From Candidatus Obscuribacterales bacterium (GTDB taxonomy: Bacteria > Cyanobacteriota > Vampirovibrionia > Obscuribacterales > Obscuribacteraceae), in contig CBDDIJ010000003.1 of NCBI GenBank assembly GCA_965228855.1, positions 1,792,001-1,856,000 on the forward strand: 64,000 nt of DNA. Reading direction: 5' to 3'. Shown one piece after another: positions 13,237-50,557 of the stretch. How positions within the stretch are numbered: position 1 is the first letter of the stretch; every line of letters begins with the position of its first letter. Under the pieces are notes generated by a model. The model saw only the letters and a program-made list of their open reading frames with translations. It was not told the origin of the DNA and did no database searches. The position numbers and the translations under genes are program-made.

Positions 13237-14838
13237 ATGGATAGATCATCAATGCAGACTCAAGGTCGACGCAAAGTCGCGCATAGAAATGAACGTGGAA
13301 ATCTCTACGTTCTCTATATCGGTTTTGCAGCGATGATTGTAGTTGTTTGGAACTTGTATGCTCAAGTCGGTTTATCCTTCATAATCAATTATCGAAGCAA
13401 GTGTGCACTGGAAGCCGCCTCCCTTGCGGCGGCCCGCGACCTCTCAAGAATCGTCATCGACGATCCTAAGTGGGGGTACGTGGCACTCACAGATCAACCT
13501 CCCGTTGGAGATGACACAAAGGCGGGAGATGGTTATCCACTTCCCGTGACCGGAATAAACACAATCATGGCGACGGTGCGACTGGAGATGCTGGTCGCGC
13601 AGTCACTTGGCACTAACGAAGCGATGGCTTGCGCGTTGGATGACCTTCGCACCGCACGCGCTGCTTCAAGACGTCTATCGAGGACCTTGCGCAATTCGCT
13701 CAAGAGAGAAAGAAGCAGCAATGAAGATGATAAGGAACTGGTAGCTCGAGATATCTTTGGAAACGTAGTTCGTCCCATGGACAGTGCCGCGACCGTGTAT
13801 CGCAAAAATGCCGATCAAATGCTTAGCGGTATGGGATGGAAACTTGAAAGTATGAACGCCGACCTTGGTTCGTTAACTCAGGAAGGCACGACAAATACAC
13901 CAAGTCCGGAGCGCGGTTTGTCCAACCGGACGGCGTCGGTATTCGAGCCGGAGTTGAAAAATTATCCAGCGTTTGAAGACGTCCCAGCGGCAGGCGAATC
14001 ATTCTACTTCGCCGGACTCGGGAAACAGACAAGTCTTGTTGAGCCTGCACTTTTCGATGCGTCACGCTCCGTTCAAAACAGCTCCGTGATACGTCTTGTC
14101 GCTCAGCTGAAACGAAACGACACTGATAACTGGATAAAATCTGTCGCGTGCGCTCAACCGGCATACATGGAGGATAAGGTACCTGCATCATATATGGTGC
14201 TTCGATTCCCAAACGGGATTCCAAATGGCACGGACTGCTTGAGGAGTTTGCTGACTTCCGACGGTCTATCGAAAAGAATTCCGTTGTACACCGCTTGTGG
14301 TGGCGACTTCCCGACCGATCGGGGCGCCCTGTTAAAAGAGAATCCGGACACGTCGTCCGCCACTGTTCGCCAGGCAGTTACCCGCGCATTTTTCGACTGG
14401 TTGAGAACCGCACATGCAAAACCGAAGCTAGATTCGATCATCAATGCGCTTGATTGTCAATTCAACAGCCAACACCCTTCAGCCACGTACTTATACACCT
14501 TCGACGACTGCGGCGAAATTGAGGTCGCGGCTTCTAAAGATTATCCGTTCCTCGCTCAAACTGCCTACGAAAGCCAGCTCTACGCAGTCGCAACCAATGT
14601 CATCAATCTGCACGGTGTTGTCTGGTCGTTGCGACTTCGCGATCAGGTCCATCGACTCGGCAAGCAGGAGGGCGGCAAACATGCCGGTCAACCGATGCCA
14701 TCCACGGTGGCGGTCAATCACAATCAAGACCAGGAGAAGCGGTTGCTTGCGACTGCCGGCAGCAGATACGACAGATCAAGGCTTGGTTTGGAACTCGAAA
14801 TTTCAACTCCGATAATGACTAACGGAGGCGATCTATGA
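13237..14838 (+). CDS. TadG-like (Flp pilus-associated) protein
   Basis: Basic leader ending ERG, then a hydrophobic helix and ALEAASLAAARDL, typical of Tad N-termini. Coupled to a TadE-like gene. Confidence 0.6.
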   Translation: MDRSSMQTQGRRKVAHRNERGNLYVLYIGFAAMIVVVWNLYAQVGLSFIINYRSKCALEAASLAAARDLSRIVIDDPKWGYVALTDQPPVGDDTKAGDGYPLPVTGINTIMATVRLEMLVAQSLGTNEAMACALDDLRTARAASRRLSRTLRNSLKRERSSNEDDKELVARDIFGNVVRPMDSAATVYRKNADQMLSGMGWKLESMNADLGSLTQEGTTNTPSPERGLSNRTASVFEPELKNYPAFEDVPAAGESFYFAGLGKQTSLVEPALFDASRSVQNSSVIRLVAQLKRNDTDNWIKSVACAQPAYMEDKVPASYMVLRFPNGIPNGTDCLRSLLTSDGLSKRIPLYTACGGDFPTDRGALLKENPDTSSATVRQAVTRAFFDWLRTAHAKPKLDSIINALDCQFNSQHPSATYLYTFDDCGEIEVAASKDYPFLAQTAYESQLYAVATNVINLHGVVWSLRLRDQVHRLGKQEGGKHAGQPMPSTVAVNHNQDQEKRLLATAGSRYDRSRLGLELEISTPIMTNGGDL

Positions 14839-15380
14839 CCATTTGCAAAAATCGAACACGGACCAGCCGCGACCGCCGACTGGGTTCATCAATCGCAGAG
14901 TTTGGTGCAGCCTTTTACGCTTTCTTCTTCGCAATCATCATTCCAACAATCAATTTGCTGAGTTTTGCAATTGCGTTTTCCTACGCACATTTTGCCGCTA
15001 ACATGACAGCGGATTCAGTGGCTCAGTCAATGACTTTAAAGCGCGCCAGACAAATCGTAGAATGCGCACCATCAGATCTAAAAGGCGATTCGCTTGCCAA
15101 TTTTCTGAAGGTCGAACCCGGTTCCGAGCGGTTCAAACTCGACCTTGTCAGAACCAATATGCAAGGCGAAAACGAGATTCTCACCGCTAAGAACTTGAAA
15201 GATAAAGATCACAGTAAAGGGCTAATTCAGTATCGAGTCCTGGCAAATTACACCCTGCGACCGCGGCTCGATCTCGGCTCGGTTCCATTCATAAACACCA
15301 TTCCAATCATCGGCAAAGAGTCCGAGCTCACGTTTAACCTGATTAGAAACATTGAGCACGCCGATGAAATAATGAATTAA
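14835..15380 (+). CDS. TadE-like pseudopilin
   Basis: RDRRLG|SSIAEFG (G-1/E+5 prepilin motif) followed by a TM helix; ATGA overlap with the upstream gene. Confidence 0.7.
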   Translation: MTICKNRTRTSRDRRLGSSIAEFGAAFYAFFFAIIIPTINLLSFAIAFSYAHFAANMTADSVAQSMTLKRARQIVECAPSDLKGDSLANFLKVEPGSERFKLDLVRTNMQGENEILTAKNLKDKDHSKGLIQYRVLANYTLRPRLDLGSVPFINTIPIIGKESELTFNLIRNIEHADEIMN

Positions 15381-15410: not shown

Positions 15411-15438
15411 TTGACTATCGTCAGCCTGCACTCATAAT
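15411..15438 (+). promoter_or_regulatory. Sigma70-like promoter of the ABC operon leader
   Basis: TTGACT-N16-CATAAT. Confidence 0.6.
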
Positions 15439-15478
15439 GGAATAACTGTTCATTTATCGAGTGTACTGAGAAACGATC

Positions 15479-15574
15479 ATGTTTACGAATACGTGCCACT
15501 ATATGCCGGAAATTTCCCTACGCGCCGTACCCGCGCAGTGGGTGGAAGCCGCACGTGTTCGCAACAGGGAGTGA
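15479..15574 (+). CDS. Putative attenuator leader peptide MFTNTCHYMPEISLRAVPAQWVEAARVRNRE (31 aa)
   Basis: ATG to TGA between the promoter and terminator; contains both competing pairing segments; SD weak. Confidence 0.55.
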   Translation: MFTNTCHYMPEISLRAVPAQWVEAARVRNRE

Positions 15575-15603
15575 TAACACTCTACTGAACTTAGCGAATC
15601 GTG

Positions 15604-15633
15604 TGAGCTTCCCAAAAGGAAGCTCATTTTTTT
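15604..15633 (+). terminator. Intrinsic terminator in the 5' leader (attenuator)
   Basis: TGAGCTTCC-CAAAA-GGAAGCTCA followed by T7, upstream of the ABC ATPase. Confidence 0.85.
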
Positions 15634-15710
15634 CGCGTCCACACTTTTCAAACCGAATCAATTGGTTTGAAACAGAAACAATCTAGTTCTTATTCAAAAT
15701 GGTGATAGTT

Positions 15711-16535
15711 ATGAACCTCGCAGTTGAAGTAGATAATTTACGCAAAGTGTACGAAGTGCACAAACGGCGTGGACTTTTCGCGAGAGAAAGAACTGAAGTT
15801 GTCTCGGTAGACAACGTCAGCTTCTCGGTGCCTGAAGGACAAGCGCTGGCATTTGTCGGACCAAACGGAGCCGGAAAATCTACGACCATTCGGATGTTGA
15901 CCGGCATCTTGAGACCGACAAGCGGATCTGCGCGAGTTCTGGGATTCGACCCGTGGAAGGATAGAGCGCGTATGGCGTTTCACATCGGAGCGGTGTTTGG
16001 TCAACGGTCACAGTTGTGGTATCACTTGCCTGCAGGCGATACATTCGACCTGCTCGCAAGGATCTACAACATCGATCCGCGTGAGTATAAGAAACGCCGA
16101 GACGAGCTTGTCGAGCGCTTCGACCTCGGAGCGTTGATAGACGTTCCGGTCAGAAAGTTATCGCTCGGTCAGAGAATGAGAGCTGAGGTGGCCGCAAGTT
16201 TGCTGCATAAACCCAAATTGCTTATGCTCGACGAGCCGACAATCGGCCTCGACATCAACGCGCGCCATCAATTGCGCGAACTCATCCGGGAGTGGAATCG
16301 TCGAGATGGTCTCACCGTCTTCTTAACGAGCCACGATACCGGCGACATCGAAAGTGTCGCAGAGCGCGTGATAATCATAAATCACGGTCGCATCGTTCTC
16401 GATGATACCGTCGACGATCTCCGGAATAGAAAGGAATTCGCCGGATTGAGCCTGGAAGATGCTCTCGCTCACATTTACGGACTTGAGCATGACGCCAGTC
16501 TCGACGACGACAAAGTGGAGGCACTCATATCATGA
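15711..16535 (+). CDS. ABC-2 type exporter ATP-binding subunit
   Basis: GPNGAGKST, LSLGQRMR, LMLDEPTIGLD, LTSHD. Start could be 15699. Confidence 0.93.
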   Translation: MNLAVEVDNLRKVYEVHKRRGLFARERTEVVSVDNVSFSVPEGQALAFVGPNGAGKSTTIRMLTGILRPTSGSARVLGFDPWKDRARMAFHIGAVFGQRSQLWYHLPAGDTFDLLARIYNIDPREYKKRRDELVERFDLGALIDVPVRKLSLGQRMRAEVAASLLHKPKLLMLDEPTIGLDINARHQLRELIREWNRRDGLTVFLTSHDTGDIESVAERVIIINHGRIVLDDTVDDLRNRKEFAGLSLEDALAHIYGLEHDASLDDDKVEALIS

Positions 16536-17329
16536 GCGCTTTGAAAAAATACTGGGCCATCGCCTGGATATCCGCGAAATCGAATCTCGCTTATGTCAGT
16601 GAAGTTTGGAGCAGATTGTTCTTCCTCGCTGTCATCCTCTACGTCTTCATGTGCGTTTGGAAAGCGACATTCGCTAATAATCCGGCAGGTCGATTCGAAG
16701 GATTCACCTTGAATGAAATCGTCTGGTACCTGGCCTTCGCGGAAGCGATCATAATGTCTTCTCCGCGCGTGACTCCACTCGTTGATGAGGACGTGAGAAC
16801 CGGAGCCATTGCCGTGCAGTTGGTGCGACCTCTGTCGTACCCTCTGTACAGGCTCGCCTCCAACTTTGGAGAACAGATTGTTCGCTTTGCCACCACATTC
16901 TTTGCGGCGGCAGTGATAGCAGTTGTTCTTGGCGGAGTCCCCGACAACTTCGCGACCGGATTGCTCTTTGCCTTGATCGTGTTGCCTTTCGCATTTGTTC
17001 TCGACTTCCTTGGATATTTGCTGGTAGGGCTCAGCGCTTTCTGGTTCGAAGATACGACCGGACTCGCTCTCATCTATTCACGATTGACGATGATAGCTGG
17101 AGGCATGCTTCTCCCGCTGGAATTGTTTCCCGAGAACTTTCGGCTTATATTGAAGGGTTTGCCCTTCGCATACATCGTGAATGGACCGGCCGGTTTGTTC
17201 GTACATCCGGACTTAACGGTATTAGGAATGGTGCTGGCCAATCAGCTAGTCTGGATAGCCGTGTTCAGTTTGCTCGTCGCGGCTGTATACAGAAAAGCGC
17301 TTGGACGCATCGCCTTGAATGGAGGATAA
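16532..17329 (+). CDS. ABC-2 family permease (DUF990-like)
   Basis: About 6 TM helices; DVRTGAIAVQLVRPL, GGMLLPLELFP, C-terminal NGG; ATGA overlap. Confidence 0.88.
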   Translation: MSALKKYWAIAWISAKSNLAYVSEVWSRLFFLAVILYVFMCVWKATFANNPAGRFEGFTLNEIVWYLAFAEAIIMSSPRVTPLVDEDVRTGAIAVQLVRPLSYPLYRLASNFGEQIVRFATTFFAAAVIAVVLGGVPDNFATGLLFALIVLPFAFVLDFLGYLLVGLSAFWFEDTTGLALIYSRLTMIAGGMLLPLELFPENFRLILKGLPFAYIVNGPAGLFVHPDLTVLGMVLANQLVWIAVFSLLVAAVYRKALGRIALNGG

Positions 17330-17330
17330 A

Positions 17331-18128
17331 ATGTGGAATAGATTATTCAACTATCTCGGTCTTGCTGTTGCCTACTTTGGATTCAACTTCAAAGCGCAAC
17401 TCGAGTACCGCACTGCATTCGTCTCTCAATCGTTCGCAATGTTTTTGAACGACTGCATATGGCTTGTTTACTTCATCATGTTCTTTGATCGATTCAACGT
17501 CGTCAAAGGATGGCAAGCTGAAGACGTAGCGACACTATGGGCGGTGACTGCCGCGGGTTTCGGAATCGGGCACAGTCTGTTCGGTAACTCGCTCGGTTTA
17601 GCCCGGATCATTGCGAATGGCGACCTGGACGGATGGCTCTTGTATCCAAGGGCTCTTCTGCCGCACGTCGTCCTCGGCAAAATGAGCGCCAGTTCGTTCG
17701 GAGACGCTATATTCGGATATGTAGTGTATCTGGTCGTAGTGAGACCGGATTTGCCACACTTTCTCCTGTTCACAGCACTCACGTTCAGCGTAGCATTGCT
17801 GTTTCTAGGGTTCAGTGTTCTCACCGGCAGTTTGAGCTTTTTCATAGGCAACGGAGATAGCTTAAGCGAAGGCTGGCGCAACGCCCTGATTGCATTCAGC
17901 ACCTATCCGATGGATCTGTTTGACGGTAAAACCAAGCTGTTGTTATTGACGATAATACCTGCAGCTTACGTCAGCGGATTTCCAGTCGAGGCGCTCAGGA
18001 AGCTGTCGCTTTTGCACGCGGCATATAGCCTTCTTGGAGCACTGGCAGTAGTGGCAACAGCCGCGATCGTGTTTCATCTCGGATTGAGGCGCTACGAGTC
18101 AGGCAATATGGTGGCAATGCGCGGGTAG
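17331..18128 (+). CDS. ABC-2 family permease (DUF990-like), second subunit
   Basis: LEYR, GDLDGWLLYP, FSTYPMDLF, GLRRYESG; SD GGAGG before MWNRL. Confidence 0.88.
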   Translation: MWNRLFNYLGLAVAYFGFNFKAQLEYRTAFVSQSFAMFLNDCIWLVYFIMFFDRFNVVKGWQAEDVATLWAVTAAGFGIGHSLFGNSLGLARIIANGDLDGWLLYPRALLPHVVLGKMSASSFGDAIFGYVVYLVVVRPDLPHFLLFTALTFSVALLFLGFSVLTGSLSFFIGNGDSLSEGWRNALIAFSTYPMDLFDGKTKLLLLTIIPAAYVSGFPVEALRKLSLLHAAYSLLGALAVVATAAIVFHLGLRRYESGNMVAMRG

Positions 18129-18217: not shown

Positions 18218-19282
18218 TCAACAGCGAGCGACAGCCGGGGTGACAGGCTCTTTTCCTATTAAACGAGAAGCGTGCGAGGTGGCAGCAAGATAGATCGGTT
18301 TAGGATTCAAACTAAACTCGCGCAGACACGCCTCGGCAAATTTCACAGCATGTTCGTCTTTTGTATTTACAGCCCTGTCAACTAGCTCCTCATGTGTTTC
18401 TTCAACATGATCGCAACCAGTGAATCTGCCATCCTGACCAGATACTGAATACAATCCCATAGCGGTCTGCCAGGCATAACTCAATACTGAATCATAATCA
18501 TTGCCATCAATGTAAGGAAGCAATATTCGCAGCATGCTCGGAGCCGTCACGGTGTGGATGAAAGTAATCGCATGTCCGATGTGACTTGCGTTGGCAAGGT
18601 AGCAACCAGCAGTCATCTCGGTAAGTTCCGATAGGAATCGATTGGCATCGCCTGTGACATCAATATCATTCACGACCGGTTTAAAATCAACGAACTCAAG
18701 AGCCTGCATCGATTCTTCGATCAATTTATACTTTCCGAGTTCTTCTCGCGGAACGATGGGAACGCTCTCAATCGCAGTTCCAGGTCGCATCTTGCCCGCA
18801 TCTCGTTGCCGTTCTCCCGGCAGGTGATGAAACGAGGAAGCCCAGTAGGCAAGCCCCTCAGCCAGTTCATTCAAACGAAGTTGGTTTTCCCCGTGAGTGA
18901 GAGTTCGAACTGCATGACCTGTTCGAATGATGCCGTGCGTTCCACCTGCCATCATTCCTGGTGCTAATGTCGGCGCCCACTTCCGAATTACGGACTGCCA
19001 TGGTCTTTCTTTCAACTGGTTCTGAAAGAAAACATCCCAATCGCCGCAGCGTTCAAACTTACCAAGCGCCTCTTGCCAGTTCTCGACGCTTATCGGGTCT
19101 CGCGGCTGGGGATGCTCGCGCAGCCGCTTCCTGTAACTCTCCGCCCAGGAGATGACACCGTCTGGTCTACCAAGAGTTATCATCGCCTCAGAGGCCATAG
19201 GACCATGATTTGAAAAGCCTACTCCGAACTCCGGTCCTGTATTCTCTAAAATCTCCAGAGCTTCATCAATTGTGGTTTCCAT
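18218..19282 (-). CDS. DUF4243/questin oxidase-like family protein
   Basis: FSNHGPM, HGIIRTGHA, ELAEGLAYWA, IHTVTA, DEHAVKFAEACLRE. Start at METTID. Confidence 0.8.
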   Translation of the reverse strand: METTIDEALEILENTGPEFGVGFSNHGPMASEAMITLGRPDGVISWAESYRKRLREHPQPRDPISVENWQEALGKFERCGDWDVFFQNQLKERPWQSVIRKWAPTLAPGMMAGGTHGIIRTGHAVRTLTHGENQLRLNELAEGLAYWASSFHHLPGERQRDAGKMRPGTAIESVPIVPREELGKYKLIEESMQALEFVDFKPVVNDIDVTGDANRFLSELTEMTAGCYLANASHIGHAITFIHTVTAPSMLRILLPYIDGNDYDSVLSYAWQTAMGLYSVSGQDGRFTGCDHVEETHEELVDRAVNTKDEHAVKFAEACLREFSLNPKPIYLAATSHASRLIGKEPVTPAVARC

Positions 19283-19383
19283 GCTGTCCTCGTTGGCAGA
19301 GACAGATACATCATAGCAGTGATGAGATATGATCATATTTGAAGTTCCTCAGCCCGTTTGAAATTGTTCGGAGTATAGAGTTG

Positions 19384-50363: not shown

Positions 50364-50436
50364 TGGACGGTACTGGACTCGAACCAGTGGCCCCCACTAT
50401 GTCAAAGTGGTGCGCTACCAACTGCGCCAACCGTCC
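50364..50436 (-). tRNA. trnV: tRNA-Val(GAC)
   Basis: GGACGGTTGGCGCAGTTGGTAGCGCACCACT-TTGACAT-AGTGGGGGCCACTGGTTCGAGTCCAGTACCGTCCA; CCA not encoded. Confidence 0.96.
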
Positions 50437-50486
50437 GTAGGTTTTAAATTGTATCCTCAAATCGGGATTCGTTCAATGAAAGGTAA

Positions 50487-50557
50487 AGGCGGCACCCAGA
50501 TTCGAACTGGGGGTAGAGGTTTTGCAGACCTCGGCCTTACCACTTGGCTATGCCGCC
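50487..50557 (-). tRNA. trnC: tRNA-Cys(GCA)
   Basis: GGCGGCATAGCCAAGTGGTAAGGCCGAGGT-CTGCAAA-ACCTCTACCCCCAGTTCGAATCTGGGTGCCGCCT; U discriminator; CCA not encoded. Confidence 0.96.

Follow-up and report, generated by a model that had tools for sequence, protein, structure and literature searches.

The exporter operon that probably starts at position 15711 of the window (here, the whole analysed stretch of 64,000 nucleotides from a Candidatus Obscuribacterales bacterium) is preceded by a leader that we interpret as a stall-controlled transcription attenuator, with a probability of roughly 0.87. Conservation, covariation, insertions and deletions that keep the reading frame and stepwise folding make the ribosome-coupled attenuator well supported, on comparative and modelling grounds. 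Concerning the signal, the chances are about even that the leader turns the exporter on when a translation inhibitor arrests the ribosome near conserved Tyr/His-Met codons. The overall probability is in fact divided among three signals, drug arrest holding the largest share, starvation a distinctly smaller one and a specific arrest peptide the smallest, and the first two of these are not mutually exclusive.

Parts of the leader and of the operon

An earlier note on this DNA had described a promoter, a uORF (upstream open reading frame), two alternative helices (1:2 and 2:3) and a terminator, and each of these parts was found where it had been placed. Two hairpins, a palindrome, the weak ribosome-binding site of the uORF and the likely ATPase start at 15711 have been added to them in the following list.

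15411..15438, + strand, sigma-70-type promoter (-35 box 15411-15416, 16-nt spacer, -10 box 15433-15438; 10 of 12 consensus matches); transcription start predicted near 15445
15479..15574, + strand, uORF of 31 codons with a weak ribosome-binding site (-3.9 kcal/mol)
15486..15496, + strand, segment 1, the 5' arm of the anti-antiterminator 1:2, from pairing and folding
15500..15505, + strand, Tyr-Met codons, candidate stall site (codons 8-9 in this leader, mostly codons 6-7 among relatives), unpaired in the window leader
15513..15547, + strand, inner hairpin within the uORF; by folding prediction, the beginning of segment 2 is bound in it when the switch is off
15544..15562, + strand, segment 2 (uORF codons 22-28), which pairs with segment 1 (via 15551-15561) or with segment 3
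15565..15587, + strand, small predicted hairpin across the uORF stop codon, within the antiterminator loop
15594..15612, + strand, segment 3, the antiterminator 3' arm, whose part 15603-15612 is the terminator 5' arm
15603..15633, + strand, intrinsic terminator (10-bp stem 15603-15627, -14.9 kcal/mol, and U tract)
15644..15675, + strand, AT-rich palindrome 3' of the terminator and before the ATPase start, present only in the window genome (G000) and its nearest relative (G007)
15711..16535, + strand, ABC ATPase (PF00005); the frame is open from 15699, and the better ribosome-binding site indicates a start at 15711
16532..17329, + strand, permease 1 (PF06182, DUF990), with a predicted ABC-2 exporter membrane fold
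17319..18128, + strand, permease 2 (PF06182, DUF990)

Four promoter-like sites were observed in 1.6 kb against 1.7 expected, so that the promoter by itself is not above chance; its weight comes from the conservation of the promoter before orthologous operons. The palindrome is a single copy in the window genome.

As for the surroundings, a questin oxidase-like gene (18218-19336, - strand) converges on the operon, and two genes without Pfam match lie upstream of it (13237-15380), encoding proteins of 533 and 181 aa whose N-termini, judged by eye, we presume to be Tad/pilin-like. Two tRNA genes are located farther away (50364-50557, - strand).

The exporter and its family

Judging from sequence, the build of the operon is that of an EVE/DUF990 ABC exporter (TCDB 3.A.1.141). 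This TCDB entry is tabulated as the EVE/DUF990 family, together with EvrABC of Synechocystis, in an excerpt of PMC5417439, where a named member is described as exporting a toxic compound. The activity associated with the family is the export of viologens. Export of a ribosome drug by any member of this pump family was not found in the literature searched. The structural model of permease 1 (pLDDT 86.9) shares 8-17% identity with the Wzm, TarG, KpsM, PmtC/D and ABCG membrane domains that it resembles, with one structure match at E <= 0.001, and is consistent with a fold of the exporter type. Sequence search gave no solved relative for permease 2, and no NCBIfam model exceeded its cut-off for the operon proteins among the matches listed.

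The permease occurs in 76 of the 104 genomes of the host family, once in the window genome, in 5/300 other Cyanobacteriota and in 0/200 further Deinococcota. Of 73 neighbour genes, 33 were scanned; they gave no hint of the substrate, and apart from ahcY in two genera none is conserved next to operons that carry the leader. Three leader-less operons (L194, L196 and L207) are followed by genes of about 530-550 aa, in two of them also by one of about 275 aa, without Pfam match. A Streptomyces plasmid cluster (L182:1-6801) contains a distant relative within the pump family together with genes for a sedoheptulose 7-phosphate cyclase, an aminotransferase, a phosphotransferase and a glycosyltransferase.

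Folding of the leader

The fold computed for the leader (15445-15634) has an energy of -61.7 kcal/mol (z = -3.39), a stability reached by none of 200 shuffled sequences, and its free state consists of helix 1:2 plus the terminator. Both helices have the size announced for them, 11 pairs in 1:2 and 18 pairs in 2:3, and the 2:3 duplex is better than 300 of 300 shuffles (z = -5.1). Helix 2:3 indeed removes the terminator 5' arm, taking nine of its ten bases; it is mutually exclusive with the terminator and overlaps the uORF. For the 1:2 duplex, a shuffle test in a fixed window that omitted part of segment 1 gave p = 0.28.

Folding was then modelled on growing transcripts, at equilibrium and with an assumed ribosome footprint of 13 nt. 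Without a ribosome, helix 1:2 has a probability of 0.85-1.0 up to position 15608. Placing a ribosome at codon 1, 8 or 14 brings the lower antiterminator to 0.99-1.0 from 15600, and the antiterminator is complete at 15612; with the ribosome at codon 20 only its lower half forms, and at the stop codon none of it. At 15612-15617 the equilibrium turns to 2:3 even without a ribosome (0.99 at 15612). Once the whole terminator is present, a stall at the start codon still leaves it at 0.99, and competition comes only from ribosomes stalled at codons 7-16 (antiterminator 0.02-0.88). Stepwise folding with and without a ribosome, a comparison akin to that proposed in the earlier note, yields a switch with three states.

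These states suggest the following mechanism. Without a ribosome, helix 1:2 would form first and the terminator next, leaving the operon off. A ribosome reaching the end of the uORF would cover segment 2, so that the terminator would form and the operon would again be off. A ribosome held at codons 1-16 would instead free segment 2, which could capture segment 3 before the 3' arm of the terminator is made, turning the operon on. We infer that the uORF is translated and that transcription is coupled with translation; the trigger would be a drug, and the pump would export that same drug. The weak ribosome-binding site of the uORF in this leader speaks against such a mechanism.

Conservation and distribution of the leader

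The first set comprised 30 operon loci, two of which were cut off, leaving 28 readable. A promoter with equal spacing, a uORF and a terminator precede 24 of these 28 orthologous operons; the uORF has 26-38 codons, except for one of 69, and in 23/24 leaders the terminator follows 21-37 nt behind its stop codon. For the held-out set, another 39 genomes were picked on the basis of the permease only; eight that the motif pattern described below had already hit were set aside. All three parts were present in 19 of these 39 and not all of them in a further 19, and the remaining stretch lacked the ATPase. Conservation of the leader and of the uORF in orthologous operons, a check suggested for the proposed switch, is therefore found in 24/28 readable and 19/39 held-out cases, and 51 family operons carry the leader when the eight pattern hits are included. 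The held-out operons without leader fall almost entirely (17/19) in three genera, where the ATPase is mostly close behind the upstream gene; first-set members of two of these genera cluster, in a quick tree, with the second copy of one genome (G012).

In a single genus (L024, L261, L262) the uORF is expanded to 63-91 codons with repeated Val/Ala/Gln stretches and the terminator is retained. Two genomes (L233, L234) lack a leader of the terminator type and have a repeat-rich stretch before the ATPase.

Within nine aligned close leaders, insertions and deletions in the aligned part of the uORF are of 3, 6 or 9 nt only, so the frame is kept. These observations bear on an alternative in which the helices respond to an RNA-binding protein or, as an undescribed riboswitch, to a metabolite, with the uORF being incidental. 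The window's clade, which gained a leader of 21-35 nt with a weak ribosome-binding site, would suit such a switch, and similar operons elsewhere do use a true riboswitch. The uORF, however, retains its start codon, its frame and the place of its stop, and a distance of only 0-3 nt separates its ATG from the predicted 5' end in 21 of 30 related leaders, making these transcripts leaderless or nearly so. The kept frame and the leaderless ATG are indirect signs that the uORF is translated. The sequence is also too variable for an aptamer (mean column identity of the leaders 42%), and Rfam, including its ykkC/ppGpp and T-box families, gave no match in the leader itself, none among 20 low-GC loci and, at E <= 1, none among 20 loci that carry the leader. 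We regard this alternative as quite improbable.

Of 120 listed metagenome loci, 80 were taken with their flanks, 70 of them with enough upstream DNA. This type of leader precedes six of the 70. By inspection, nine high-GC loci of the 70 have, besides a promoter-like site, a uORF and a terminator; the end of the uORF contains a complementary stretch. These ATPase relatives (L075, L084, L094, L098, L099, L108, L122, L129, L130) bear a different uORF-terminator leader, without Tyr/His-Met. Two copies in Deinococcales have a version with a 17-codon uORF, His-Tyr-Met and a rebuilt RNA. Their ATPases nest inside the Obscuribacterales clade in a quick tree, which points to acquisition by transfer and therefore to no independent origin.

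The leader seems to be dedicated to this operon. Genome-wide scans of the window genome gave one copy and no other target, and 15 of 16 hits of a leader model lie at these operons, the remaining one being inside a long ORF. With both pattern and model scans, no resistance gene or other gene sharing this leader was found, which, like the lack of conserved neighbours, weighs against the preferred explanation.

Pairing and ribosome position across relatives

In 23 leaders (the one with 69 codons being excluded), the antiterminator duplex beats shuffled sequences in 16 and helix 1:2 in six. We also crossed the arms of 26 leaders, after dropping four near-duplicates. Segment 2 pairs with its own segment 3 at -22.8 kcal/mol versus -17.0 with foreign ones (p < 1e-4), and the arms of 1:2 at -14.4 versus -12.9 kcal/mol (p = 0.002), the own partner being the best in 3/26; since related leaders are not independent, these p values overstate the effect. 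When the structures of the window's leader were imposed on the nine close leaders, paired cells amounted to 89.5% for 2:3, 82.8% for 1:2 and 90.0% for the terminator, far above slid controls, and both-side pair changes numbered three, three and two, respectively. The arms of the antiterminator therefore co-vary, as the crossed arms and the both-side changes indicate, and helix 1:2 is the weaker part of the switch across the family.

This result weighs on another explanation, namely a plain terminator damping expression behind a small protein gene, with complementarities due to chance. Promoter-like and terminator-like sites are common by chance and 1:2 is weak in several leaders, as this explanation would have it, but the antiterminator arms co-vary with their own terminator, and the encoded peptides diverge widely past codon 8 and have no Pfam match. 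We therefore consider it very unlikely.

Stepwise folding was extended to 30 leaders. Early pairing of segments 2 and 3 (probability of at least 0.3) was obtained in seven of them when free, in 19 with a ribosome at codon 1, in 27 with a ribosome at the Tyr/His codon, in 27 again with the ribosome six codons further on, and in none with the ribosome at the stop codon. The terminator arm was held in 25/30 leaders and in 19/19 held-out ones with the ribosome at codon 6, against 1/30 and 4/19 with the ribosome at the stop. The stall had been proposed to occur on the first codons of the uORF; in the window's own leader such a stall does free segment 2, but the family fits an elongation stall near codons 6-12 better. 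Once the whole 5' arm is out, 2:3 displaces 1:2 at equilibrium without any ribosome in 16/30 and 18/19 leaders, and for this reason the off state without translation would depend on kinetics. With the full terminator present, many relatives fold the terminator at every ribosome position and show no switch. According to these models, the most robust feature is trp-like: completion of the uORF frees the terminator, and an early stall does not.

The uORF peptide and the conserved Tyr/His-Met codons

Codon 6 encodes Tyr or His in 20/24 leaders of the first set and in 24/27 of a wider set, from which three near-duplicates and two leaders without comparable start had been dropped and for which eight of the 30 leaders had been chosen partly by the motif. 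The same holds for 13 of the 19 held-out leaders, nine of these 13 belonging to one genus. Codon 7 is Met in 18/27 and 11/19 and is something else in 9/27 and 8/19. Tyr/His-Met occurs in the same window of random small ORFs in 0.2% of 7149 cases. A search with a promoter-plus-motif pattern, blind to the downstream gene, gave 16 hits in 104 genomes, all 16 before this ATPase, while the control gave 0. In the window's clade the motif codons are unpaired (pairing probability 0.05-0.32) and yet kept, and their change between the two closest genomes is synonymous, which together argues for selection acting on these codons in that clade.

These patterns might be attributed to a ligand-specific arrest motif in the ribosome tunnel, comparable to ErmCL or TnaC: the peptide would begin with Tyr/His-Met in order to sense a single small molecule, which is probably the pump substrate. 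The frequency of Tyr/His at codon 6, its maintenance where it is unpaired and in the two Deinococcales copies, and the exclusive association of the pattern with this ATPase go in this direction. However, of four held-out genera two no longer have the motif, and its held-out occurrences are concentrated in one genus; in most other leaders its codons sit inside helix 1:2, so RNA pairing may explain them; and the Deinococcales copies, being due to transfer, do not represent an independent origin. A specific arrest peptide appears improbable on balance.

Two further ideas on these codons were dropped. Sensing of queuosine through Tyr/His codons was abandoned since 23/27 motif codons end in C, and C-ending Tyr/His codons are the form read well without queuosine modification. 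A second start at Met7 was discarded because Met7 is absent in several leaders and no ribosome-binding site accompanies it.

Amino-acid attenuators of the same genome and the nature of the signal

Classical amino-acid leaders are present in the window genome, making ribosome-coupled attenuation plausible in this organism. Near-leaderless uORFs of 27 codons, rich in Met, and of 28 codons, rich in Thr, precede cystathionine gamma-synthase (L183, G000:C2, - strand, near 1924139; antiterminator and terminator) and thrS (L186, G000:C3, + strand, near 2639738; terminator), respectively. The exporter leader shares the near-leaderless uORF with these local Met and Thr leaders. A uORF with a run of five Asn, Asp nearby and a terminator lies before an aspartate-tRNA(Asn) ligase (L185, G000:C2, - strand, near 1628428) and is a candidate Asn/Asp attenuator. 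Two tandem Phe/Trp-rich leader-terminator units precede DAHP synthase (L184, G000:C5, - strand, near 327821), and a frame with six consecutive His codons, whose start codon is not fixed, stands with a terminator before hisG (L187, G000:C3, + strand, near 1552621). Seen against these leaders, that of the exporter lacks their signature: neither the first-set nor the held-out uORFs contain a run of any single amino acid. In contrast to the genome's Met, Thr, Asn, Phe/Trp and His leaders, this absence fits a general stall sensor.

The same switch could also respond to uncharged tRNA, sensed at positions 4-8 with their Cys, Tyr/His, Met and Gln codons and arising from starvation, from inhibitors of tRNA synthetases or from mimics of amino acids; we hold this for possible, at well below the weight given to drug arrest. 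Relative to the proteome, codons 2-10 of 27 leaders are enriched in Cys (6.2x), Met (4.2x), Tyr (4.1x) and His (3.8x), and the five classical leaders of the genome have their sensing codons in the same window, from about codon 7. The Cys and Met enrichment may partly reflect base pairing, however, and the lack of a single-amino-acid run and the frequent loss of Met7 speak against this signal. COG3694 and COG4587, which we take to be PF06182, provide a link to starvation. A ppGpp riboswitch (ykkC subtype 2a) was found before natA-COG3694-COG4587 operons in 12/105 cases (PMC6003355, in part), and natA is also listed as a match of the Bacillus cereus EVE ATPase (PMC5417439). Moreover, a single Trp codon suffices for the response of the whiB7 uORF to Trp starvation (10.1101/2023.06.02.543512).

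By analogy, the ppGpp control of similar operons points to starvation and thus goes against the drug reading. Ribosome drugs generally lower ppGpp whereas uncharged tRNA raises it, so uncharged tRNA is a signal that both sensors could share. The kinship of the ppGpp-controlled operons would be at the family level only, though, the Bacillus and Clostridium members compared being only about 24% identical, and no ppGpp riboswitch was found in the 20 low-GC metagenome loci. It is conceivable, if speculative, that EVE/DUF990 exporters are a translation-stress defence wired across phyla to unrelated sensors of uncharged tRNA, either ppGpp riboswitches or, in Obscuribacterales, leaderless Tyr/His-Met uORF attenuators. 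In that case the pump substrates would be inhibitors of synthetases or mimics of amino acids, and Tyr/His6-Met7 would be a hitherto undescribed stall motif that identifies the inducer and, with it, what these orphan transporters carry. The switch gives this orphan transporter family a direct assay: the signal that opens the leader is the best lead to the substrate of the pump.

Comparison with known systems

The leader is a new family of a known kind, similar to bmrB-bmrCD. The classical attenuators trpL, hisL, thrL and pheL have the same 1:2, 2:3 and 3:4 logic and a similar length; differently from them, the leader described here has no run of control codons and governs an ABC-2-type exporter instead of a synthetase or a gene of biosynthesis. 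In Listeria, lmo0919/rli53 also has a uORF inside an anti-antiterminator and works by transcription attenuation. As to the pumps, BmrCD is of a different ABC type from the EVE/DUF990 exporter.

The likeness to antibiotic-responsive attenuators proposed in the earlier note holds as far as the parts go: bmrB-bmrCD of Bacillus subtilis is the closest worked-out system, with uORF, anti-antiterminator, antiterminator and terminator before an ABC exporter (PMC4191407), and an anti-antiterminator of 11 bp in the early uORF is present here too. bmrB-bmrCD is induced by ribosome drugs (PMC4191407, PMC9226507, PMC13689557, all in excerpt), and its read-through needs a slowed ribosome (PMC4191407). The two systems show no sequence kinship; bmrB, as described in the excerpt of PMC4191407, has 53 codons with the terminator inside it, whereas here the terminator follows the stop codon; the uORF here is mostly leaderless and keeps Tyr/His-Met. 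The vmlR leader of Bacillus subtilis likewise places a uORF inside an anti-antiterminator and attenuates transcription (PMC9226507). It differs in having a uORF of three codons that senses arrest at the start codon, an ABC-F target and an extra hairpin sequestering the SD sequence (PMC9226507); here the uORF has 26-38 codons, segment 2 lies inside it and an elongation stall opens the switch best.

Sensors of wide range are also known. toiL senses five drug classes (PMC12121999, in part), and the whiB7 uORF of mycobacteria, a uORF-antiterminator switch as well, answers ribosome drugs and amino-acid starvation, even through one codon (10.1101/2023.06.02.543512). whiB7 differs in its target, a transcription factor, and in its Ala-enriched uORF, and the excerpt of the same source describes no 1:2 helix. 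Attenuators with leaderless uORFs are known in mycobacteria (10.1101/834739, in part). The operons under the ppGpp riboswitch resemble ours in being three-gene ABC operons with conditional control by a 5' leader tied to translation stress, and differ in that a ligand-binding aptamer, without uORF, is the sensor in the excerpt of PMC6003355. The EVE/DUF990 family shares the set of one ATPase and two PF06182 permeases (PMC5417439), but the leader was not found at the two cyanobacterial orthologues inspected.

A description of this leader was not found in the literature searched, outside of which stand the supplementary lists of candidate leaders of PMC11109978 and PMC2965389; DUF990 is unnamed in the excerpted main text of both. 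As far as searched, novelty lies in the family and its lineage, in the leaderless uORF and in the Tyr/His-Met that is kept; the mechanism itself is of a known kind. What the comparison suggests is leader-peptide attenuation acting on mostly leaderless mRNAs and controlling a gene of the defence type in non-photosynthetic relatives of cyanobacteria, and possibly one gene family, with pump kinship at the family level only, that has swapped a riboswitch for a uORF sensor.
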